From: a virus
Lineage: Duplodnaviria; Caudoviricetes
Virus record (IMG/VR): IMGVR_UViG_3300036833_000266
Location: 1-37,292 of that record
DNA length: 37,292 nucleotides
Reading direction: 5' to 3' (one strand)
How positions within the stretch are numbered: position 1 is the first letter of the stretch; each line of letters opens with the position of its first letter. This document shows, piece after piece, positions 7,467-34,193 of the stretch. Below the pieces are notes generated by a model, which made no database searches, was not told the origin of the DNA, and saw only the letters and a program-made list of their open reading frames with translations. Both the position numbers and the translations under genes were made by a program.

Positions 7467-7547
7467 TGTTGCGCTACATTGTTGCGCTACATGTGTTGCA
7501 CAACAATTCTGTTGCGCTACACTGTTGCGCTACACTGTTGCGCTACA
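7467..7547. repeat. Array of six 12-bp quasi-palindromes TGTTGCGCTACA
   Basis: Exact copies at 7467, 7480, 7510, 7523, 7536 and variant TGTTGCACAACA at 7494. Confidence 0.95.
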
Positions 7548-7864
7548 TGATCGAAACCGAAGATTCTCTCCGCGAATTCCAACAGCGCACCGGCCGTTCC
7601 ATCTCCTCTCCCAATACCAATTTGCCTGCCGTGCCTGTGCCAGCCGACAAAGCCGAGTCCAATCATACGCCCAGGGACCACTCTGCAAGCGTGAATGACA
7701 GTATCGGCTGCGAAGCGCGAGAGGCATCAGCCCGAAGACCGGAGCATGTAAGGGAACCGGACTCCCGCGGCGGCAGGCATCCCAAATCTCGCGCCTCTTA
7801 CTTCCGCCACTACCGCAAACGCCCACGCTTCTGCCCTCATTGCCGACTCCTACTTAACCCTTAG
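7547..7864 (+). CDS. Hypothetical protein with basic C-terminus and CPHC motif
   Basis: ATG overlaps the last repeat unit; ends 'RHYRKRPRFCPHC'. Confidence 0.5.
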   Translation: MIETEDSLREFQQRTGRSISSPNTNLPAVPVPADKAESNHTPRDHSASVNDSIGCEAREASARRPEHVREPDSRGGRHPKSRASYFRHYRKRPRFCPHCRLLLNP

Positions 7865-7876
7865 AGCAACAGCACA

Positions 7877-8377
7877 ATGAGCGACTTATCACACGGTCAA
7901 TTCGACGCAGAATTGTCAGCCGCCAAAATGCAGCACCTTTGGAGAGCCAGACAATCCAGACACGGCTCTTGGGACCTCTACTTCGGTGACAAACTGCTGG
8001 CCGCAGATTTAACCGAGAATCAAGCAAGGCAGATCACAGAGGTCCTGCAGCAGCGCGACGAAAATGGCGATACGAAATACGATCGCGCATGGCAAGCAGC
8101 ACAGCGCAGAGCCGAAGTAGCGCAGCAGCGTTGCGAGCGGTTGGAGCAGGACTTAAAAGGCGAATTGGCAAACGGAACTACACTATTTCGCCAACTTGTG
8201 ACCGCAGAGCAGCGTTGCAAGCGGTTGCTGGTAGCGATGAAAGACGCTGCTTTCGAGATTCAGCGGGAGAGGTCGTCTTCAGCATTAAATATTCTAGAAG
8301 CCGCAATCGCAGCAGAACAGGAGGGGGAATGTGAACCACCTCTTCTTACGCACAACACGGATAACCACAAATCCTAG
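7877..8377 (+). CDS. Hypothetical coiled-coil protein
   Basis: 166 aa, internal repeat AQQRCERL / AEQRCKRL. Confidence 0.65.
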   Translation: MSDLSHGQFDAELSAAKMQHLWRARQSRHGSWDLYFGDKLLAADLTENQARQITEVLQQRDENGDTKYDRAWQAAQRRAEVAQQRCERLEQDLKGELANGTTLFRQLVTAEQRCKRLLVAMKDAAFEIQRERSSSALNILEAAIAAEQEGECEPPLLTHNTDNHKS

Positions 8378-8967
8378 ATTCCAAATTCTATTGCGCAGTC
8401 GGAAGGGCGGATGATTCCCCGCGGCCGCGATCGGTCATACGGCACTGATCGCGACCATCGCGGGTGCAGGATGGTCCGTGTAGGATGGTCGGGCAGGAGC
8501 TTCGACTTTACATTATTCGTTTTGTCCGATGTTATTGGCAATGCCTTATTGCCGAGGCTCTTATTGGCCGACCAAAACAAGCCGGCCTTATCGCATGTCT
8601 TAAGCTTTCCAGGTTGGCCTCCATCGCGTTTTGATCTCGCGGCCGCCACATTTACACTCTGAAATCCAACCCTGGCAATTGTCGAACCGTTGTTTAATTG
8701 GTCGCGTCAATTGCTTGTTTTGGAGATCCCGGCCGCCATGTCTGCAGCCGTTTATTGGTTGCGTCCCACCATTAAAGGCAATGGTATACCAGTGCCAGGC
8801 AGTGTAGGCAGTGTAGGCAGTGGTTGCCTTTTGTTTTGGTTGGTTGGTCGTTTTTGGTTGGTTGTGTGTCTGTAGGATCTCTTGAGACGGAGAGCCACGC
8901 GATGAATTGAACGCGAGGATTGCAAAGCGCGACGTTAAAGCGAGTTGGCCGGCCGGCCTGGCTAGTA

Positions 8968-8980
8968 GCTAACCGTTAGC
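8968..8980. promoter_or_regulatory. Operator O1a (GCTAACCGTTAGC)
   Basis: Perfect 6-1-6 palindrome, 85 bp upstream of O1b. Confidence 0.75.
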
Positions 8981-9043
8981 AAATAGCATGCCAATCGTTG
9001 AGATTCGGCCGGCAATTATTTTTGTTTATTTTCGGTAGTGGCA

Positions 9044-9071
9044 TTGACTGTAGCTAACGGATAGATAAGCT
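9044..9071 (+). promoter_or_regulatory. Early promoter P1 with operator O1b in the spacer
   Basis: TTGACT-16 bp-TAAGCT, AT-rich tract upstream, GCTAACGGATAGA at 9053-9065, ATG 8 nt after the -10. Confidence 0.75.
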
Positions 9072-9079
9072 TGTAACAT

Positions 9080-9247
9080 ATGAATAATACGTTAGATACA
9101 ACTAAACAAACTATTAAATACGACTATGAGCATCAAGCTTGGGTCGTAAACGGCAAATATGCGTCTTGTGCGCATCCGGAGCAAATGCATTGCAAATGCT
9201 ACGGCAAACTGCACGAAGGCGAGATTTGCATAACGGAGGTCCACTAA
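9080..9247 (+). CDS. Small Cys/His protein (55 aa, leaderless; not in ORF track)
   Basis: MNNTLDTTKQTIKYDYEHQAWVVNGKYASCAHPEQMHCKCYGKLHEGEICITEVH; stop 1 nt before next gene. Confidence 0.75.
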   Translation: MNNTLDTTKQTIKYDYEHQAWVVNGKYASCAHPEQMHCKCYGKLHEGEICITEVH

Positions 9248-9248
9248 A

Positions 9249-9593
9249 ATGCCGTACATAGCTACAGACAAAGTAAAATTAATGCGCTCAAATATCCGGA
9301 AAGCTTTACCGGGATACGTTGTGAGCGTCACAAAACATCACCATTCGACGGTAGACGTTCGTTTAATGTCGGGGCCGATTCCGCCGGTAGACGTAAACGT
9401 TTACTGGTACAGAGAGCACCTACAGAATAATCCCGACGCACTAGCGTTGGTTGAAACAATCATGTCGGAGATTGACAAGGTGCAGACATCTCGCGAGCTC
9501 GTAAATGATGGCGATTATGGAAGCGTCCCAACGTTTTATATTAACGTCTCGTTTGGCAAATGGGACAAACCCTATGTGCAGGAGGTCAAATAA
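9249..9593 (+). CDS. Conserved phage early protein (possibly LPD29-like)
   Basis: 'IRKALPGY..SV...H.S.V.V..MSGP...N.Y...FYI....GKWDKPY'; tightly coupled to neighbours. Confidence 0.6.
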   Translation: MPYIATDKVKLMRSNIRKALPGYVVSVTKHHHSTVDVRLMSGPIPPVDVNVYWYREHLQNNPDALALVETIMSEIDKVQTSRELVNDGDYGSVPTFYINVSFGKWDKPYVQEVK

Positions 9594-10444
9594 TGACGCT
9601 TTTATCGATTGGCAACGATAGCAAAACGGTCAAAGGCGAAAAATTCGGTTTTGTGACCGGGATTCAATATTTTGCGCCGGCGCATTTAGCAGGCAACGGG
9701 ATTAATGTTTGCAAATTCGCGACAGTGCATTGCAAAGCGGCTTGCCTATATTCGGCCGGCCGCGGGATCATGAGTAACGTGCAAAAAGCGCGGATTGCCA
9801 GAACGCAATTCTGGTACGCGAATCCGACGCGTTTTCTTGCGCAATTGGAAAGCGAAATTTCGGCCTTAGTTAAAAAGGCGGAAAAAGCCGGAATGCGTCC
9901 AGCTATTCGTTTGAATGGGACCAGTGACATTTTGTGGGAAAAGACTGGAATTCTTGAGAGATTTCCTCATGTCCAGTTTTATGACTTCACGAAATATCCG
10001 GCCGGCCTTCGCCAGAATTTGCCTGGCAATTACCATTTGACCTATTCATTTACCGGCCTGGCAATATCGGCCGAATTTTCGGATGCATGGGCAAAACGCG
10101 GAATTAATACGGCTGTCGTTTTCAAGGTTAAAAAAGGCGAACCCTTACCGGCCGAATTTTTTGGCCGGCCGGTCATCGACGGAGATTTGTCGGATTTGCG
10201 TTTTGCGGATCCGGCCGGGTGCATTGTCGGCCTTCGTGCGAAGGGGAAAGCTCGCGTTGGGATCTCGCCTTTTGTCGTTGAAGTGAAAGAAGGCCTGGCA
10301 ATCTGGCCGGCCGCGGATCCGGCCGCGGAAAAGGAAGTTGAGCGAATCATGGCCGCGGCCGCGAATCTCGGAAAAGTAACACTAAAGCCGATGTCAATTC
10401 CAGTCGGTACGGATCCGCTCGAGATCAAAGCTTGGACAGCCTAG
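9593..10444 (+). CDS. Gene product 88 (GP88)-family protein
   Basis: 'N.KT.K...APA...NVC......C...CL..AGRG...ARI.RT...RLNGTSDI.WE...FYD.TK...NYHLT.S...DGD..DLRF.DP...VGL.AKG'; SD GGAGG, TAATG overlap. Confidence 0.85.
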   Translation: MTLLSIGNDSKTVKGEKFGFVTGIQYFAPAHLAGNGINVCKFATVHCKAACLYSAGRGIMSNVQKARIARTQFWYANPTRFLAQLESEISALVKKAEKAGMRPAIRLNGTSDILWEKTGILERFPHVQFYDFTKYPAGLRQNLPGNYHLTYSFTGLAISAEFSDAWAKRGINTAVVFKVKKGEPLPAEFFGRPVIDGDLSDLRFADPAGCIVGLRAKGKARVGISPFVVEVKEGLAIWPAADPAAEKEVERIMAAAANLGKVTLKPMSIPVGTDPLEIKAWTA

Positions 10445-10531
10445 CGATTGCCTACAATAGCGGCCGGCCTGGAGAGATCCGCGGCCGGCCGTTATAAGGT
10501 CATCACAAACAACCAAAGGAGAAAATTCAAA

Positions 10532-10801
10532 ATGTATATGCGAGACTATTTCGGCCATGATGAAGAGATCCCGGCCGGATTTCAAGATGCCGACATCGAA
10601 ACGCGCGAGCTCGAGGCCGCGGCCGCTGAAACGCGCAATTTGCCGGCATTTCGTGTCATCTACACGGACGGAACAAGCTACGTTACGTCGATGTCCAAAA
10701 GCACAACCTTAGAAAATGCGCGAGCTTATTTTGTCGACGCGTCTATTGAACAAATGGACGGAACATGCAAACGCGTTTCAGATGTGCAGGAGATCAAATA
10801 A
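10532..10801 (+). CDS. Hypothetical early protein
   Basis: SD AAGGAG upstream of ATG 10532. Confidence 0.65.
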   Translation: MYMRDYFGHDEEIPAGFQDADIETRELEAAAAETRNLPAFRVIYTDGTSYVTSMSKSTTLENARAYFVDASIEQMDGTCKRVSDVQEIK

Positions 10802-10802
10802 C

Positions 10803-11096
10803 GTGAAAGCAATTCACTGGTATACAGACAAGAACGCGTTTCGCGGATTTAGGCCGGGGCAAATGATAACGTTTCGCGTCCCAAACGGCTTGAGCTTTAC
10901 AGGCAAGCAAGAATACAAGGTCAAACGAGGCAAAATTATAATGTGCTTCGAGAATCATGTTGTGGCTAATCATGGAAGCTTTGGGCAAGTTGTAAACGAT
11001 CAGAACTGCGTAACAAAGCCGAAACGAATTCCTAAAGGTGCAGTGATTCAACCTGGCACTGGCGGCCTGTTAGTGAAACGCGGGAGGGTCTTGTGA
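10803..11096 (+). CDS. Hypothetical early protein
   Basis: GTG 1 nt after previous stop; GTGA overlap with next gene. Confidence 0.6.
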   Translation: MKAIHWYTDKNAFRGFRPGQMITFRVPNGLSFTGKQEYKVKRGKIIMCFENHVVANHGSFGQVVNDQNCVTKPKRIPKGAVIQPGTGGLLVKRGRVL

Positions 11097-11275
11097 TAAC
11101 ACGCGACCAAATTTTGGAGGCTGTCGAGCGTGACGATTGCACGGGAATTTGCCTAGCTTGTAGAAACGAGCAAGGCAATTGCGAACCCGACGCGCGTAAA
11201 TACGAATGCGAAGCTTGTGGCGAGCTCAAGGTATATGGCGCAGAGGAATTGCTTTTCAAAATAGGAATGGACTAG
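11093..11275 (+). CDS. Zinc-ribbon phage protein
   Basis: 'GICLAC...CEPDARKYECEACG...VYG.EELL', two CxxC; SD GGGAGG. Confidence 0.8.
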   Translation: MITRDQILEAVERDDCTGICLACRNEQGNCEPDARKYECEACGELKVYGAEELLFKIGMD

Positions 11276-11289
11276 CGAATGAAACGAAC

Positions 11290-11328
11290 AAAGGCCGGCC
11301 GGGATTTGATCCGCGGCCGGCCTTTTTA
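11290..11328 (+). terminator. Rho-independent terminator of early operon 1
   Basis: AAGGCCGGCCG-GGAT / ATCC-GCGGCCGGCCTT stem followed by a T run. Confidence 0.8.
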
Positions 11329-11526
11329 CTGTACAGAATCAAGGACCAATGAAGACACGAATTCAGCCGGCCTGTCGGCCGCGGGATCCCGGCCGCGGCC
11401 GTTTATTGGTCATCTTGCCAGGCCGGCCGCGGGATCCGGATCCGGCCGGGATCCCGGCCGGCCAGACATGTTCTGCAGTGCATGTGCAATCGAACATGTT
11501 CGCTCGAGCACACGCGTGTGGCCGGT

Positions 11527-11655
11527 ACTTTGGATGGTCGACTTTGGATGGTCGACTCTGGATGGTCCGATGGTCGGCCGGCCAATGGCGAGCTCGTACT
11601 TTGGATGGTCAACTTTACAGCCGGCGAATCGCGCGATCGGCACTTTGGATGGTCG
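11527..11655 (+). repeat. Cluster of 14-bp direct repeats ACTTTGGATGGTCG
   Basis: Copies at 11527, 11541, 11555 (variant), 11598, 11642; partial at 11569; a distant copy at 12644. Confidence 0.95.
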
Positions 11656-11659
11656 ATCA

Positions 11660-11672
11660 GCAAACGGTTAGC
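11660..11672. promoter_or_regulatory. Operator O2a (GCAAACGGTTAGC)
   Basis: One mismatch from the palindrome; 84 bp upstream of O2b. Confidence 0.7.
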
Positions 11673-11734
11673 AAAAGTTGTGCCGAGAGGTCAGAACGTC
11701 GCGAAATAAAGCTGCAAATATTTTCAGGTTCCCA

Positions 11735-11762
11735 TTGACAATAGCCAACGGATAGCTAGAAT
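11735..11762 (+). promoter_or_regulatory. Early promoter P2 with operator O2b in the spacer
   Basis: TTGACA-16 bp-TAGAAT, GCCAACGGATAGC at 11744-11756, ATG 8 nt after the -10. Confidence 0.85.
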
Positions 11763-11770
11763 TGAGATCA

Positions 11771-11965
11771 ATGAATAAACACGAAAAGTTAGTAATGGAA
11801 GTTGCCGGTCGCGATTATGTGACCAGGCGACTTGGAAAGAAATCAACACACCACGTTTTGATTTTCGCTTGTCCAGGGTGTGGATCCGAAAAGCGATATT
11901 TCGCGAACCTGATTGGTTGCCGCGGCAATCCTGTTTGCGACGGAATCACGCAGAAACTTAGTTAA
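11771..11965 (+). CDS. Small Zn-binding protein (leaderless)
   Basis: CPGC...C...C; ATG 11771 directly after P2. Confidence 0.7.
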   Translation: MNKHEKLVMEVAGRDYVTRRLGKKSTHHVLIFACPGCGSEKRYFANLIGCRGNPVCDGITQKLS

Positions 11966-11983
11966 TTGGGAGGGGGCAAAATA

Positions 11984-12175
11984 ATGGAACACACAACTTG
12001 GCTTTACATCCAAAGCGAACGCGCCGGCCAAAAGATCTGCGATGGCGTTTACATGGAGCACAACCTGTTCACGGTGGGGTTCTACACTGCCGCTGGGAAA
12101 TGGGAACCGGAAAGCGATTTCAACACACGCGAACAGGCCGCGGAACGTGTCCACTACCTAAACGGTGGCAAATAA
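11984..12175 (+). CDS. Conserved small phage protein
   Basis: 'W.YI.SE...LFTVGFY...GKWEPESD...E.AA.RVHYLNGG'; SD GGGAGG. Confidence 0.75.
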   Translation: MEHTTWLYIQSERAGQKICDGVYMEHNLFTVGFYTAAGKWEPESDFNTREQAAERVHYLNGGK

Positions 12176-12252
12176 GCGAAGCAGTGTTCAACTGCACTGG
12201 TGTTCAGCCACTCATGCGCCGGCGTTGCTTGCCGGCAGTCGGCGCATGGAGG

Positions 12253-12426
12253 ATGAATACAAACAAAGTAAAACAGCCGAAAGCTCGCGGCAAGCCAGAA
12301 AGCACAAGCGATTTTAAAGCTCGGATTGCGCTTTTAAAACGCAACCAGGAAACAGGAAGAAAATATAGCCTCGTTGGTGCGAGTCGCGCCAGCGAATGCG
12401 AACTAAGGAGGAAACGATCCACATGA
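12253..12426 (+). CDS. Small basic hypothetical protein (start uncertain)
   Basis: 3' part of ORF 11998-12426; ATGA overlap with next gene. Confidence 0.4.
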   Translation: MNTNKVKQPKARGKPESTSDFKARIALLKRNQETGRKYSLVGASRASECELRRKRST

Positions 12427-12629
12427 GGCTTTCAATGAAAATATTCTTGCCGGTGCTAGCAGCGATTCTGACCGCAGTCGCAATCATTTACGCAATATCG
12501 CAAATCGATTTGTCAAACGGCCCTCCGAGCTTCGTGGGAAGCAAGCCAGGCTACATGGAAAACAGACAAAAGAAAGAGCAATTGGAATGGCTGAAAAAGC
12601 TCAAACGTATCAAGGAGGGAAAAGAATAA
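12423..12629 (+). CDS. Single-TM membrane protein
   Basis: N-terminal hydrophobic helix, charged C-terminus, AAGGAGG upstream. Confidence 0.65.
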   Translation: MRLSMKIFLPVLAAILTAVAIIYAISQIDLSNGPPSFVGSKPGYMENRQKKEQLEWLKKLKRIKEGKE

Positions 12630-12660
12630 CGCGCGTGGCCGATACTTTGGATGGGCAGAC

Positions 12661-16528: not shown

Positions 16529-16960
16529 TTAATCGTTATTGTTCCCATCTGGAACAATTTTGCCGTCCACTGTTTGCCGCCGTGTTTTGCGGTCAGCGTC
16601 GTAACGACGCAACACAACCCCTAATGACCTGACCAATGTTGCGAGCTTACGTTTCGCTAATGGGTGATGCTCTGGATCTTCCTTTCTCGCTGCATCACGA
16701 ATCATTTGCGCCGCTATGATATTGTCAGCACTTAGCGATCCTTCAACCGCATCTGTATCCCAAACCGCTTCTAAAAGAGCCCTGAATTCAGGGCTCTTAT
16801 TCACTAATACTTCAAGCACATCTTCAACATGATCGTTGATAGTGCGATGGCCTTGTAAGGTCCGTTGCCAGTCTTCCATTTTGGCTGGCAACTGGGTTGG
16901 ACGCGGCCTTAATTGCTGTATTTCTGTCTTACTCTCTGTTTCTGTCTCTGCTTCTATCAT
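16529..16960 (-). CDS. Hypothetical protein
   Basis: Open frame with A-rich leader in the leftward operon. Confidence 0.65.
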   Translation of the reverse strand: MIEAETETESKTEIQQLRPRPTQLPAKMEDWQRTLQGHRTINDHVEDVLEVLVNKSPEFRALLEAVWDTDAVEGSLSADNIIAAQMIRDAARKEDPEHHPLAKRKLATLVRSLGVVLRRYDADRKTRRQTVDGKIVPDGNNND

Positions 16961-21469: not shown

Positions 21470-21499
21470 CTTCCATGCTGGCCGCTGCTAACGGTTAGC
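21466..21499 (+). promoter_or_regulatory. Promoter P3 overlapped by perfect operator O3a (GCTAACGGTTAGC, 21487-21499)
   Basis: TTGACT-17-TAACGG with TG extension (imperfect -10); palindrome ends 2 nt before ATG 21502. Confidence 0.65.
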
Positions 21500-21501
21500 T
21501 C

Positions 21502-21663
21502 ATGGATGAAAAAGAGTTGATCAGACAAGCCATGTCTGTGCTCGGCAGCCGAACGAGCGAACGCAAGAAAGCCAGTTCTCGAGCGAACGCGAAGCTGCCG
21601 CGGAAGCGCGGGAAGAAAAAAAGGGTTGCGACTAGCAAACTGATGGCTAATGTGGCGGCCTAA
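21502..21663 (+). CDS. 53-aa basic protein, candidate repressor (not in ORF track)
   Basis: MDEKELIRQAMSVLGSRTSERKKASSRANAKLPRKRGKKKRVATSKLMANVAA; TAATG overlap with next gene. Confidence 0.7.
   Translation: MDEKELIRQAMSVLGSRTSERKKASSRANAKLPRKRGKKKRVATSKLMANVAA
21626..21653 (+). promoter_or_regulatory. Promoter P4 with degenerate operator O3b in the spacer
   Basis: TTGCGA-16 bp-TAATGT; GCAAACTGATGGC at 21635-21647, same register as P1 and P2; ATG 9 nt after the -10. Confidence 0.55.
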
Positions 21664-23224: not shown

Positions 23225-23285
23225 TTGTCTAATCATCTATTCAGGCGCATAAAAGGTGCGTAAATATGAAAACACCAGCATCCAT

Positions 23286-24032
23286 ATGAACGAACAAGAA
23301 GCAACTAATGACGGGACGAGTGCAACGCCGGTGGCAACGGCAGCACCCGTCGAAACCTCCTTTAAATGTCCAACGTGCAGCAGAGAGTTTGCCAGTGAAC
23401 GTGCGTTGCAAACGCATCAGATCCGATCGCACAAACAATTCTGGAGCACGAACAAGGGGCAGCGGCGAAGTAGCCCACGCGCGAAGATGGGTCGACCACC
23501 GAAAAATAAGGCAGCAGTCTTAGCCAAGCACAAAGAATACTACAAGCGATACGCTGCAAAACTCAAAGCGCAGGGACTCACTACGCACGGCAATGTGCCG
23601 GTGGGGCGAGGATCGGGGCGCAAAAAGAATCCGCATCTAGGCAAGACTTGCCCGGTGTGTTCGCGCAGTTTCGCAACACGCGCGATTATGGGACATCATT
23701 TGCGAGCAATTCACGGCAAATCGTTGACTCAATTTAACAATGGCCCGGAACCTAGGTCGCTTGTGGTACAAAATCTCAGCTGCCCAGTGTGCAGTAAGAC
23801 GTATGGTCGCCGCGCTTACCTGGCGATCCACACGCGCAAGGTTCACGGGAAAAGCATCGCTGTGCTTGAGAAAGGCAGCACCTCGGAGCCTACGCCCGAG
23901 GCAGTGCCGGCAGCATCGGCGCGAAAGCTGACTCAGCAGCAGACGGCTAGTCGTCCAGTAATCTATTGTCCTGTCTGCGGAACAAATATCCACAATGTCC
24001 AAACGGCTGTGAATTTCGGAGAAATACAATGA
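23286..24032 (+). CDS. Protein with three classical C2H2 zinc fingers, AT-hook-like motif and C-terminal CxxC
   Basis: Three C-X2-C-X12-H-X4-H units; GRPPK; terminal YCPVCG. Start could also be GTG 23256. Confidence 0.85.
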   Translation: MNEQEATNDGTSATPVATAAPVETSFKCPTCSREFASERALQTHQIRSHKQFWSTNKGQRRSSPRAKMGRPPKNKAAVLAKHKEYYKRYAAKLKAQGLTTHGNVPVGRGSGRKKNPHLGKTCPVCSRSFATRAIMGHHLRAIHGKSLTQFNNGPEPRSLVVQNLSCPVCSKTYGRRAYLAIHTRKVHGKSIAVLEKGSTSEPTPEAVPAASARKLTQQQTASRPVIYCPVCGTNIHNVQTAVNFGEIQ

Positions 24033-30973: not shown

Positions 30974-31789
30974 ATGAAGATCGACACTATTAATGGCTGG
31001 TTTCGCGGACTGGGCGACATTGTGTGTTATGCGTGGCTAGGCGAAGGTTTACTGGCCGCCGGGGAACCAGTTGAATTCTTCGCCACCGACTGGCGAGCAG
31101 AGGTCTTGCGCATGTTCCAGATGCCCGTGGGCGCGGACAGGGACGGCGCAGTCCTAACATGGGAAGGCTATGAAAAAGCCGTTAGCACTCACTCGCCACT
31201 CAATTACCTGGACTGGATCGCGCACCGCCTCGGAGTCAAAGCGCAACCGAAACGGCCGCGCCTGGACCTGACACCAATGGACAGGGAGATGGGACGCCGC
31301 GATAGCGCGGACGTCCTGATTTTCCCGTTCAGTTACTCACCGGTCCGTAGCTGGCCGAAAGCCTATTTCATTGAACTTGGTCTGTTACTTAAGGCCGCAG
31401 GCTTCAGCGTAAAAGTGGTGACTGAACAACGGGACTACGGTTTCTTCATGCCGTTCCATTGCATCGTTGGGCAAAGCTGGAACTACATCGCCGCGGCGAT
31501 CCAAAGCGCAAAGCTTGTCATCGGGAACGACAGTGGCCCCGCGCACCTTGCCGGGACGATCGGCACAAGGACGATCGCGATCCAAGGCGCAACCACTGAA
31601 AGGATATACGTCCATATCCCAGAAGTGATTTCGTATCGCAAGAAAGCATTGTCTTGCGCTGGGTGCCACTGTCTGCCGCCAGATTTTCGCGCGACATGCG
31701 ATACCGGTTGCCTCGAGCTCTATCGGACGTTGCCGGAAGAAGTGGTCGAGTTCGCAATTCGAACCCTCAGTATGGAGAAAGCAGCATGA
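30974..31789 (+). CDS. Glycosyltransferase family 9 (heptosyltransferase-like)
   Basis: 'GLGDIV', 'RSWP...F.EL', 'AAIQSAKLVIGNDSGPAHLA', C-terminal 'CAGCH...C...CL...L.PEEV'. Confidence 0.9.
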   Translation: MKIDTINGWFRGLGDIVCYAWLGEGLLAAGEPVEFFATDWRAEVLRMFQMPVGADRDGAVLTWEGYEKAVSTHSPLNYLDWIAHRLGVKAQPKRPRLDLTPMDREMGRRDSADVLIFPFSYSPVRSWPKAYFIELGLLLKAAGFSVKVVTEQRDYGFFMPFHCIVGQSWNYIAAAIQSAKLVIGNDSGPAHLAGTIGTRTIAIQGATTERIYVHIPEVISYRKKALSCAGCHCLPPDFRATCDTGCLELYRTLPEEVVEFAIRTLSMEKAA

Positions 31790-32079
31790 AAATAATTATG
31801 CCAGGACACAAATACGAGCTCGCGAGCTTTGAAGGATCGGATCCGCAAGTGGTTCAATTTATCGAAAAGGAACATCCTTCGATGAAGACCATCAATGATG
31901 GCACCACGAATGAAGAGGTGCTCGCCATGCTCATCGATCGCTTGCGCTCGCTCGGTGAAACAGTTCCGTGTCGAGAGAATTCAATCGCCATTACGAGATG
32001 CGAGGAAGCTCTCATGTGGCTAAACAAACGTACCGCCGACCGAAAAGCGCGAGGCGTTGAAGGAACTTCAGCAGCATGA
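31786..32079 (+). CDS. Tad1/Acb2-family nucleotide-signal sponge (anti-defence)
   Basis: 'H.Y...G...EEVL..LIDRL...PCRENSIAIT..EEALMWL.KRT.DR..RGVEGT' matches the Tad1 C-terminal helical hairpin; ATGA overlaps on both sides. Confidence 0.75.
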   Translation: MKIIMPGHKYELASFEGSDPQVVQFIEKEHPSMKTINDGTTNEEVLAMLIDRLRSLGETVPCRENSIAITRCEEALMWLNKRTADRKARGVEGTSAA

Positions 32080-32735
32080 CCGCACTGGGCTTTGGCATGA
32101 CCGGAATGGAAGAACGGATTTGCCAGGTCGTCCGAGATCTCGCCGGTCGGTTTGATGAGATCACTTACATGGAAATCGGTGTAGGCGAAGGCACGACACT
32201 CACTGGCATTGCTCGGGAACTGAGAATGACCAAAAAGAAGTGGCGAGCAATCGGCCTGGAATTGCCAAACGGTTACTCGTTCGATCGTTTGCGGACGATG
32301 GAGATTGCAGCGAGAAGATCTCTTCCACTCACCTTCGTTCACCCTGAAACGATCGTGTATCCAGCCTGGGAACGAGTCATAGTCTATTTCAAGGATAGCC
32401 AAAGTTTTTTGACCGAGCATTGGAACGCTCCCATCCACCTGGCGCTGATTGACGGTTGCCATGGTAAACCGTGCGTCACCGCGGACTTTATCGCACTGGA
32501 AGCATTCATGGCAGATCAAGGCATCGTCATGTTCCACGATTTCAGCGAAGACCAATCCGGACATCCACAGCCGCATTGTGCCGGCGGCTGCGACGTTCGC
32601 GGTGCCTGTCGCGATCTTGGGTTATTAAGCGATCGCCGGGCCGGCTGGAGATTCACCGAGGCAATACCTGCGGACCGAACCAATGGCGGCTGGGACATGG
32701 GCGTTTTTACCAAACAACCACTTAAAAATGGCTAA
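32076..32735 (+). CDS. Class I SAM-dependent methyltransferase (Methyltransf_24-like)
   Basis: 'YMEIGVGEG.T', 'IHLALIDGCH', 'G.VMFHD'. Confidence 0.85.
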   Translation: MTALGFGMTGMEERICQVVRDLAGRFDEITYMEIGVGEGTTLTGIARELRMTKKKWRAIGLELPNGYSFDRLRTMEIAARRSLPLTFVHPETIVYPAWERVIVYFKDSQSFLTEHWNAPIHLALIDGCHGKPCVTADFIALEAFMADQGIVMFHDFSEDQSGHPQPHCAGGCDVRGACRDLGLLSDRRAGWRFTEAIPADRTNGGWDMGVFTKQPLKNG

Positions 32736-33420
32736 CTGGGTCATACTTAAAGGCACAGACGTCAGGCTGCTCGCAACGGAGCAGACCATAATGACGCAAG
32801 CCTCACCTCTTCAGAGCCTAGACAGTTGCGTTCTATCGGCTGAAAACGTGGCGCGAGGCTACGTCGCTGGCGGCGGCAATCCAATGGAACCGGAGCCGTC
32901 GATCCCGCCGGAATGCGTGGATGACGTCATCGCGATCGCACGGGCAACCTATCTCGCACAAGACCCGACCGGCACGTTGCTGACTCCAATCCGGCAAAAG
33001 GAACGCGACAACGCCTACCTGCACCTGAAAGACATCGCCAAAGAGATTTCGGCCATAACGCCAGCCGATCTTTCACTAACGGATACCGCACAGGAACTGA
33101 AGTACGGTAAATGGGGCAGTAAAACCTACTTCCCGATGCGCACTGATCCGATCCCTGCCCCTTCCCCACCGCCGCCAGCGCAACTGGACTGGTCATATCG
33201 TTCAACGATCGTGAGCTTGCGTGGGCCAGCGCAGCCGTCACTCGACAGCGTACTTACCACTTCGCTTCTTGTCTTGTCATTGATGGAAGTAGTGATTGGC
33301 AATCAGGCTCAGAGCTTCCAACTCCGGGCCGGCGCGGCTGATCCTCTGGATCCCGGCCAGGTTGCGCCCTTGGATTACAACCTGGCTACCAACAACAAAC
33401 ACTGGGCCAAAGTAGGATGA
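32728..33420 (+). CDS. Head-tail adaptor (Mu gp36/DUF1320-like) with extra C-terminal domain
   Basis: 'W.....DV...A...RGYV...IP.......IA.......R.....A...LKDIA', Pro linker PIPAPSPPPP, then ~75-aa beta domain. Confidence 0.65.
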   Translation: MANWVILKGTDVRLLATEQTIMTQASPLQSLDSCVLSAENVARGYVAGGGNPMEPEPSIPPECVDDVIAIARATYLAQDPTGTLLTPIRQKERDNAYLHLKDIAKEISAITPADLSLTDTAQELKYGKWGSKTYFPMRTDPIPAPSPPPPAQLDWSYRSTIVSLRGPAQPSLDSVLTTSLLVLSLMEVVIGNQAQSFQLRAGAADPLDPGQVAPLDYNLATNNKHWAKVG

Positions 33421-34193
33421 AAACCAAAAATCTCATCGTTGTCGGCCTGCTTGTTTCCGCACTACTCCTACGCGCGGATGAACCCATCATGCTCGGGACA
33501 AAAGATCACAAGGTGGTTAGCCCGACGACAATTGATTTCTCGAGCGCATTAGTATTGGGCTTGCCAATTTCCCCTTCGGCGTTGACCGAGACTAACGATA
33601 CAAATGTTACTCTCGCCCTCAGTGGAACTCCTGCCACATCACTGTTGGCTCCCGTAACAATTACGGCTGGATGGACAGGAACTCTCGCTACGTCCCGCGG
33701 CGGTCTAGGAAGTAGCATCGCGCCCAGTGTTGGACAGCAGGTTCGCGGTGTTCCAGGGAGCATTTTTGGAGCGTTCACGACCGCAATAACTACTGCTAAT
33801 CCAGCAAACCCTGTGAACACGACCAGCACGGCAGGCGTCATGGCCGGACTCAAGGTAGCATTTACGCCTAAATACAGCGGCAACGAATTAGTCATCGTTA
33901 CCGGTCGTGCAATGACAAGCGCGTTGAATTCGTATGGCACTATCCAGGTTTATTACGGCACAGGCACAGCACCGAATAATGGAGCGGCTATAACAGGAAC
34001 TGCAGTAGGTAATCCCATTATCAGCTCCAATATTCAAGCAGCAAACGACGTCATGCCTTTTACCGGTGTGGTAGTTGCCATGAATCTTACGATTGGCACG
34101 GTCTATTGGTTTGATCTTTCCCAAATGTCAAACATGGGAGGAACGACAACATTTAACCTTTACAGCATCAGCATGAATTTGATCGAACTATGA
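33417..34193 (+). CDS. Fibre/decoration-like protein with N-terminal signal peptide
   Basis: MKTKNLIVVGLLVSALLLRA-D; Thr/Gly-rich; 'GWTG.L...RGG.G' fibre motif. Confidence 0.6.
   Translation: MKTKNLIVVGLLVSALLLRADEPIMLGTKDHKVVSPTTIDFSSALVLGLPISPSALTETNDTNVTLALSGTPATSLLAPVTITAGWTGTLATSRGGLGSSIAPSVGQQVRGVPGSIFGAFTTAITTANPANPVNTTSTAGVMAGLKVAFTPKYSGNELVIVTGRAMTSALNSYGTIQVYYGTGTAPNNGAAITGTAVGNPIISSNIQAANDVMPFTGVVVAMNLTIGTVYWFDLSQMSNMGGTTTFNLYSISMNLIEL

Follow-up and report, generated by a model that had tools for sequence, protein, structure and literature searches.

Why should 3.2 kb of a phage genome be crowded with GGCC-centered palindromes, inside genes as well as between them, when elsewhere the phage under-uses GGCC? 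The locus that raises this question lies in IMG/VR record IMGVR_UViG_3300036833_000266, whose 37,292 nucleotides (the window, analyzed as a whole) are, to judge from their gene content, the partial genome of a temperate tailed phage. The crowded block overlaps an accessory cassette that carries a gene for a GP88 protein (PF17338). Our analysis demonstrates that the excess of CGGCCG and of palindromes is real and is no codon artefact, and that it is accompanied by a depletion of asymmetric restriction-type sites, a layer absent from the original prediction for this block; both the depletion and the excess survive codon controls. About half of the finding represents a known pattern, leading-region avoidance, in a variant form directed at asymmetric sites instead of palindromic ones; the remaining half, the excess of CGGCC and perfect palindromes that recurs at other loci, is quantitatively unaccounted for. 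We tentatively favor host restriction avoidance coupled with re-use of safe words as the explanation for the composition of the cassette, a reading to which we give somewhat less than an even chance.

The original prediction had put about 30 CGGCCG sites in this interval, and direct counting bears it out: 29 lie in 8418-11582 (9.2 per kb) and 22 in the other 34,128 bases (0.64 per kb; Poisson p = 1.5e-23). Over the same partition GGCC, as had been described, numbers 54 versus 134 and CCGG 42 versus 180, while GGCCGGCC occurs 12 times inside and twice in the rest, and GGATCC 7 and 11 times. GATC had been listed among the enriched palindromes and is not one of them (20 versus 248 copies, or 6.3 versus 7.3 per kb; 9 versus 10.0 expected in genes). 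It does cluster near GGCC, with 13 of 22 sites at most 4 bases from one (15% expected, p = 3e-6), and the composites in which GATC precedes GGCCG are present at the places quoted for them, some off by 1 base; their claimed common orientation did not hold (10 versus 6). Change-point fits placed the limits of the depleted words at 8341-11580 and those of the 6 bp palindromes at 8581-11640, near the limits first proposed (8418-11582), and the G+C content of the block is an ordinary 51%.

The decisive comparison is with coding constraint. In the six cassette genes (2,112 bp), resampled either from genome codon usage or by permuting their own codons, CGGCCG occurs 12 times where 2.0 and 2.4 copies are expected, a count reached in none of 1000 resamplings under either control, and GGCC occurs 25 times (11.9 and 11.4 expected). 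The seven CGGCCG sites in the conserved core of the GP88 gene, the gene whose codons had been said to be shaped by the palindromes, compare with 0.9 and 1.4. A codon or amino-acid artefact is thus ruled out by both controls.

The favored word is best fitted as the 5-mer CGGCC/GGCCG, not the hexamer; its 82 copies are divided 40 to 42 between the strands. CGGCCG itself stands 13.8x over expectation in the block, and GC-centered palindromes are all raised (GGCC 4.3x, TGCA 2.3x, AGCT 2.1x, CGCG 1.8x). Zero-spacer palindromes with 3 bp arms reach 43.6 per kb versus 13.2 elsewhere, and 29.3 versus 12.1 once CGGCC is masked; perfect palindromes of at least 10 bp number 20 in 3.2 kb versus 36 in 34 kb. 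Hits to palindromic restriction sites are about doubled (447, versus 153-262 in 18 equal-length outside windows), with 67 distinct palindromic specificities versus 45-65. The block also has the smallest 6-mer and 7-mer vocabulary in the genome, and words purged throughout the phage (GCGCGC, AGCGCT, GGCGCC, TGGCCA, CCCGGG, GTGCAC and GCACGC) are at zero here too. Hairpin or single-strand structure was rejected, since arms separated by 3-8 bases lie at background level or close to it; in a coarse folding scan, several z-scores within and beside the block were low. Neither helical phasing nor a fixed spacing of GGCC was seen in the block. Contigs of the possible source run cover the block with one difference, which excludes an assembly artefact as far as that run allows, and diverged variants of the block occur there at low depth.

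The second layer is one of depleted k-mers, for which a check had been proposed along with the original prediction. In genes CAG was observed 37 times with 72 expected, GCAG 8 with 23 and CAGC 5 with 17, and across the block CAGC, CGCC, GCCC, CACC, CTGA and ACTC stand at 0.2-0.4x and CAG at 0.55x. We matched sites from the Biopython restriction dictionary, which after filtering comprised 373 asymmetric, 49 bipartite and 121 palindromic sites. The six genes hold 533 asymmetric A/T-containing sites versus 648 +- 26 under synonymous resampling, a value not reached in 500 resamplings. Among equal-length segments of the window, the block matches the fewest distinct asymmetric specificities (241, versus 273-302 in the 18 outside windows) and the fewest bipartite sites (53 versus 72-107).

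A comparable depletion extends to other GP88 loci. Of the 160 fetched, removal of redundancy left 120, and 52 came with 4 kb or more of distant DNA; asymmetric sites are rarer near GP88 in 43 of these 52 and CAG in 46, although outside coding DNA such near-versus-far counts are confounded by gene density. When 41 GP88 genes are resampled on the codon usage of distant DNA, CAGA, GGAG and TCCA come to 0.59, 0.67 and 0.71 of expectation, CAGA falling below expectation in 35 of them, and palindrome avoidance is absent from 110 GP88 genes (1.02, versus 0.87 in 100 distant open reading frames (ORFs)); these coding comparisons are non-independent, since the protein is shared. In all six cultured GP88 phages examined with GP88 near the record end (DC31 carries GP88 internally and was not included), the first 2 kb form the lowest bin for asymmetric sites.

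We propose that asymmetric sites are depleted likely because host restriction selects hardest on early-acting DNA. In this phage, or formerly in a donor phage, the cassette would be exposed to Type I, IIG, III or BREX-type systems ahead of any action by anti-restriction proteins; the Type I specificity subunit HsdS is found in 19 of 108 candidate host genomes. Positions freed by avoidance would likely be refilled from a few safe words. Because a host strain needs just one copy of its motif, each new word is costly and each repeated word is free, and palindromes, being identical on both strands, would never constitute asymmetric sites. CGGCC is adenine-free on both strands and self-chaining, as in GGCCGGCC, which may make it the cheapest way to hold G+C at 51%. 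On this account a roughly fourfold extra weight on CGGCC would still be required on top of modeled avoidance, and a role for GP88 as an anti-restriction product is speculative.

Quantitative models support part of this account. An exact Markov avoidance model, run without five sites (four lacking an unambiguous A or T, plus CGGCCR), predicts the median 4-mer shift seen with GP88 at rho 0.55, and a model that charges a cost for each distinct asymmetric word yields, from random DNA, both palindromes and hoarded words. Adding a single weight of about fourfold on CGGCC gives GGCC 54, CGGCC 83 and CGGCCG 32 (observed 55, 82 and 29) and lowers the deviance from 681 to 386, and a general palindrome weight lowers it further to 328. 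That added weight is needed because the models, right in direction, otherwise yield just one third to one half of the excess in CGGCC and in palindromes.

Several observations weigh against avoidance with safe-word re-use. Avoidance by itself allows at most 1.8x for GGCC and 3.7x for CGGCCG, well short of the values observed. With vocabulary matched, the distinct-word model gives 69-72 six-bp palindromes versus 141 observed, and a top 5-mer of 21-32 copies versus 82. Even the best model is incomplete (deviance 328 over 136 words), failing to reproduce the excess of AGCT/TGCA or how deep the deficits of CAGC, CGCC and GCCC go. The site list was drawn mostly from phyla other than that of the host; nine of the 52 GP88 loci run in the opposite direction, and the confounding by gene density noted above bears on these counts; none of seven cultured GP88 phages hoards CGGCCG. 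Nor does contig depth give a sign of first entry, being flat over the block with no end pile-up, in contigs that cannot show ends; the block itself stands upstream of the terminase genes by about 13 kb. Doubled depth that would speak for a long terminal repeat was not seen, a point that contigs alone cannot decide. Finally, the available part of PMC12455610 cautions that for headful packagers such avoidance would be of no consequence.

The same part of that paper reports experiments in a T7-like group in which only early-injected Type I sites decide restriction. Like the restriction-site-free leading DNA of T7-like Autographiviridae and the first-step-transfer DNA of T5 (PMC12455610, in the part available), the block combines sub-genomic motif depletion with a variable set of small, putatively early genes, and bipartite, Type I-like sites are at their lowest in it. 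Unlike that DNA, in which Type II sites are avoided, it has palindromic sites doubled and one word hoarded; the phage is moreover temperate, and first entry of its block is conjectural. In conjugative plasmids the leading region is also first-acting accessory DNA with a composition of its own, although the portion of PMC13478746 at hand finds palindromic targets systematically depleted either weakly or not at all, and describes no palindrome excess and no hoarded word. Another point of reference lies in the cyanobacteria. There HIP1 and other highly iterated palindromes are spread genome-wide and are tied to a resident methylase. As with HIP1, a palindrome has been written into coding DNA far over expectation; unlike HIP1, the excess is limited to 3.2 kb, and both candidate host DNA and the phage outside the block use GGCC less than expected. 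We found no description of a palindrome-hoarding GP88 region in the open-access literature, supplements aside.

The cassette (Table 1) is optional. It is absent from L205, a contig of a close relative whose flanks are 98% and 90% identical on the left and 89% on the right, and a contig in run X2 has the same cassette-less junction; we count the two as one observation. The last kilobase of the cassette (11661-12660) is of ordinary composition. The core segment to its left is much more diverged in L205 than the gene immediately left of it, and by eye it is also present in a complete relative, G002, which has no GP88; CGGCC occurs in it 8 times here, 3 times in L205 and not at all in G002, all small numbers. 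Fast-evolving segments with conserved blocks occupy 8418-8929, L205:4900-5431 and L371:1180-1700, between the late and early operons, and in G002 the segment precedes an apparent sigma-70 region-4 gene that is absent from the window. This segment is a candidate regulatory leader or packaging signal; no Rfam family was found in it, which leaves a structured RNA unsupported. GATGGTC repeats had been said to bracket the island, and copies do lie on both sides, but those on the left belong to the segment shared with cassette-less phages, and only the right cluster is specific to the cassette.

Table 1. Coordinates of the features discussed, in window positions.
Feature	Position	Strand	Remarks
Compositional block	8418-11660		CGGCC and zero-spacer palindromes up, asymmetric A-containing words down, smallest 6/7-mer vocabulary
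Core segment, no convincing gene	8418-8929		Kept in cassette-less relatives; far more diverged than flanking genes
Left GATGGTC copies	8453-8498		8453 minus (inverted); 8470 and 8484 direct
Accessory cassette	8930-12660	+	Absent from close relative L205, which has a few bases instead
Operator-like 17 bp palindrome, copy 1	8966-8982		Consensus TAGCWAWCSGWTWGCTA
Promoter-like element P1	9042-9079	+	Operator-like copy 2 (9051-9067) between hexamers; 74% like P2
55-aa Cys/His-rich ORF	9080-9247	+	No family
114-aa protein	9249-9593	+	phrog_10415; weak LPD29 match under Pfam cut-off
GP88 protein, 283 aa	9593-10444	+	PF17338; 10 CGGCCG, 7 in conserved core; non-conserved C-terminal tail
89-aa ORF	10532-10801	+	No family; 2 CGGCCG
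97-aa ORF	10803-11096	+	No family
60-aa ORF with two CxxC pairs	11093-11275	+	No family
Densest non-coding stack of overlapping palindromes	11290-11470		Perfect 20 bp palindrome at 11442; terminator-like stem 11376-11401
Right GATGGTC cluster	11525-11654	+	Six copies at 11533-11648, 14 bp unit
Operator-like copy 3	11658-11674
Sigma-70-like promoter P2	11735-11762	+	11/12 matches; operator-like copy 4 (11742-11758)
Two more operator-like copies	21485-21649		Beside excisionase-like helix-turn-helix gene; also in cassette-less relative
Tail and lysis genes	0.2-7.3 kb
Early operon	12.7-19.3 kb	-
Integrase	19.6 kb
Terminase, Mu-like portal and head genes	from 24.5 kb

The two promoter-like elements of the cassette each contain an operator-like palindrome, from which we infer an early unit under the control of a phage regulator. 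P1 is itself inferred and was not listed by a consensus promoter scan; P2 is predicted to drive the second, ordinary-composition part of the cassette. Operator-like copies number four in the cassette, two at 21.5 kb and two in the cassette of a same-family phage (G003), compared with 0-4 per window, mostly 0-1, in 20 shuffles.

The GP88 family assignment is secure (143 bits versus a cut-off of 24.4; E 1.7e-41), and the structural model (predicted local distance difference test score 84.8) is predicted to form a partial barrel resembling that of radical S-adenosylmethionine (SAM) enzymes. The best VIA match is pyruvate formate-lyase activating enzyme (Z 7.0, root-mean-square deviation 4.4, 169 aligned), followed by QueE, NifB and viperin; the scores, Z 7.0-6.2, are all <8 and below the level that proves kinship. 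Foldseek returned no match at E 0.001, no sequence relative was found in the PDB, and the Atlas look-alikes are viral clusters without function. The canonical CxxxCxxC is absent; three invariant cysteines, C40-x6-C47-x3-C51, may form a variant cluster motif. The accession PF17338 had no match in the open-access literature searched. In many cultured phages GP88 lies near a genome end, often within ~2 kb of the end of the record; here it sits in an optional internal cassette on a contig.

Recurrence of the word at other GP88 loci bears on a doubtful alternative, the strongest that we considered, in which a phage or host factor reads CGGCC/GGCCG and loads densely for protection, anti-silencing or activation, on top of avoidance, with every copy then under selection. 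The single CGGCC weight was the best single-word fit tried, and CGGCC sites are placed at conserved GP88 residues through synonymous choice. In L051, L141 and L110 this 5-mer ranks first or close to first, and in L368 it is raised; in a GP88 tree drawn quickly, without regard to support values, the CGGCC-rich cases occupy three separate parts. In G003 the cassette holds 13.3 CGGCC per kb versus 3.6 in the rest of the contig. Against a dedicated reader, the word is absent from most GP88 loci: at least 3-fold excess with at least 15 copies was found in 4 of 120 others (L141, L051, L110 and L139), and no strong richness among 28 further loci. The rich loci have no gene in common besides GP88, the sites have no fixed spacing or helical phasing, and palindromes other than CGGCC are raised as well (89/237 versus 364/1714 extend to 6 bp, p = 1e-7). 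Among 132 terminase-flank loci no CGGCC island was comparable with that of the window, and GP88 was present in only 2 of 43 terminase-family records, one of them weak. Of viral contigs, a pattern scan returned 44 high-G+C chance loci, none with GP88, and a degenerate GP88 motif scan 98 loci, 6 with GP88 and none strongly CGGCC-rich; a scan with the single GP88 protein found nothing. A broader proposal, that GP88 leader cassettes of unrelated phages repeatedly evolved a CGGCC code for a host or phage DNA-binding or DNA-modifying factor, shielding or activating first-acting DNA, with GP88 as a radical-SAM-like counter-defence, strikes us as rather unlikely.

Two side observations concern vocabulary at related loci. 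Five other GP88 regions (L094, L118, L119, L173 and L075) hoard other words (ATAAT, CGTGGC, GGACCG/GCCGTT, AAGCCC and CGCGC), which suggests that GP88 regions carry lineage-specific vocabularies. In G003 (L373:1-12000) the structural genes are mildly rich in CGGCCG and GC-centered palindromes, and 12-17 kb is without CGGCCG.

It is improbable that a local mutational process, such as short template switches or inverted micro-duplications in specially processed DNA like that of a genome end, writes the palindromes and that their excess is merely tolerated. The clear rise is only in zero-spacer palindromes, long perfect palindromes are concentrated in the block as counted above, the stacks at 11290-11470 resemble iterated inversions, the core segment diverges far faster than its flanks, and a diverged variant of the cassette lacks the site at 10212, all as such a process might leave them. 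It would, however, leave the loss of asymmetric sites and the preference for a single word unexplained, seven sites fall within the conserved core of GP88 and leave the protein unbroken, and no terminal-repeat signal was seen in contig depth.

Other alternatives depend on the host. The terminase relatives of the phage sit in Verrucomicrobiota genomes, the closest (72-75%) including a Candidatus Udaeobacter and a Spartobacteria bin and also an Opitutaceae bin, which makes a chthoniobacterium (Chthoniobacterales) the probable, though not the certain, host of this phage from soil. Host searches covered 108 candidate-genus and 401 order genomes, all of them incomplete. Mimicry of host DNA was rejected, as the block is the least host-like 3.2 kb of the phage (4-mer rho 0.61 versus 0.74-0.85).

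The original prediction had offered a densely host-methylated self flag as one reading, and host modification, whether methylated cytosine in GGCC/CCGG or a Dnd phosphorothioate in GGCC, now appears quite improbable as the cause. An SPPY-type N4/N6 methylase (PF01555) is present in 95 of the 108 candidate-genus genomes, which speaks for a resident modification, and 20 of 27 methylase proteins extracted from 30 loci form one cluster; it stands beside a thiazole synthase-like gene at L451:1435-2226 and at 19 further loci among L452-L473. This conserved enzyme, which appears to resemble the GTAC enzyme M.MjaV, is probably an orphan methylase with GTAC as its putative target. C5 methylases occur in only 8 of the 108 genomes; in 307 kb of candidate host DNA GGCC (observed/expected 0.84) and CGGCCG (0.80) are under-used and GTAC is the lowest 4-mer (0.54), and GATC is not enriched in the block. 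A search for a HaeIII-type nuclease matched 0 of 108 genomes and was uninformative, as no positive control matched either. GTAC is given as the M.MjaV motif in the available part of PMC11033074, and PMC6329791, in its accessible part, records no GGCC methylation in its Verrucomicrobia bins. CGGCCG/GGCC, the identical word, is the preferred phosphorothioate site of Streptomyces lividans, with GATC another Dnd motif, according to the available portion of PMC6435447; DndD, however, passed the cut-off in none of the 108 genomes of the genus and in 6 of the 401 of the order.

Very unlikely, too, is that the block is the unameliorated genome signature of a GGCC-rich donor: the cassette is accessory and little like the host, as such an origin would predict, but in L051, L141, L110 and L368 the excess is local and not genome-wide, the cassette promoters carry an operator common to the core genome, and the shared core segment is richer in CGGCC here than in relatives (on the small counts given above). 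That the palindromes are decoys titrating Type II restriction enzymes or sensors, as the original prediction had also offered, is scarcely credible in spite of the doubled, polylinker-like stacks of palindromic sites, since the sites most strongly avoided genome-wide are absent from the block as well, distinct palindromic specificities are barely above the outside range, and a decoy cut in cis would still break the genome. What stands of the proposed selected DNA-level information is a signal beyond codon use in an early-type cassette; its decoy and self-flag forms find little support, and a protein-loading zone is a possible form.

Elsewhere in the window, an ORF at 31654-32079 (+) in the head operon matches the Acb2/Tad1 hairpin domain (36.3 bits versus a Pfam cut-off of 27) and is a candidate anti-CBASS/Thoeris sponge. 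Genes for a Glycosyltransferase family 9 protein and a Methyltransf_24 protein (30974-34193, +) within the same operon, kept in G002, G003, G005 and G006, form a possible virion glycosylation module. A 258-aa protein with several C2H2-type zinc-finger matches (23256-24032, +) is encoded directly upstream of the terminase genes. Six 13 bp tandem repeats of the unit TGTTGCGCTACAT at 7467-7548 differ in copy number in a relative and show strong folding (z -8.8), and a perfect 24 bp palindrome centered on GAATTC lies inside a minus-strand early gene (16775-16798).

Restriction avoidance by phages is usually measured as a whole-genome loss of palindromes. The block carries the reverse signature at sub-genomic scale, with asymmetric sites lost and palindromes gained, and we tentatively prefer safe-word re-use under host restriction to a dedicated reader, which is doubtful, and to a local mutational process, which is less probable again. 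If avoidance with safe-word re-use is correct, GP88 neighborhoods would provide a sequence-only read-out of Type I, IIG, III or BREX-type pressure in uncultured hosts and would mark first-acting DNA, making GP88 a testable anti-restriction candidate, and the recurring CGGCC excess may offer a handle for finding a possible new DNA reader.

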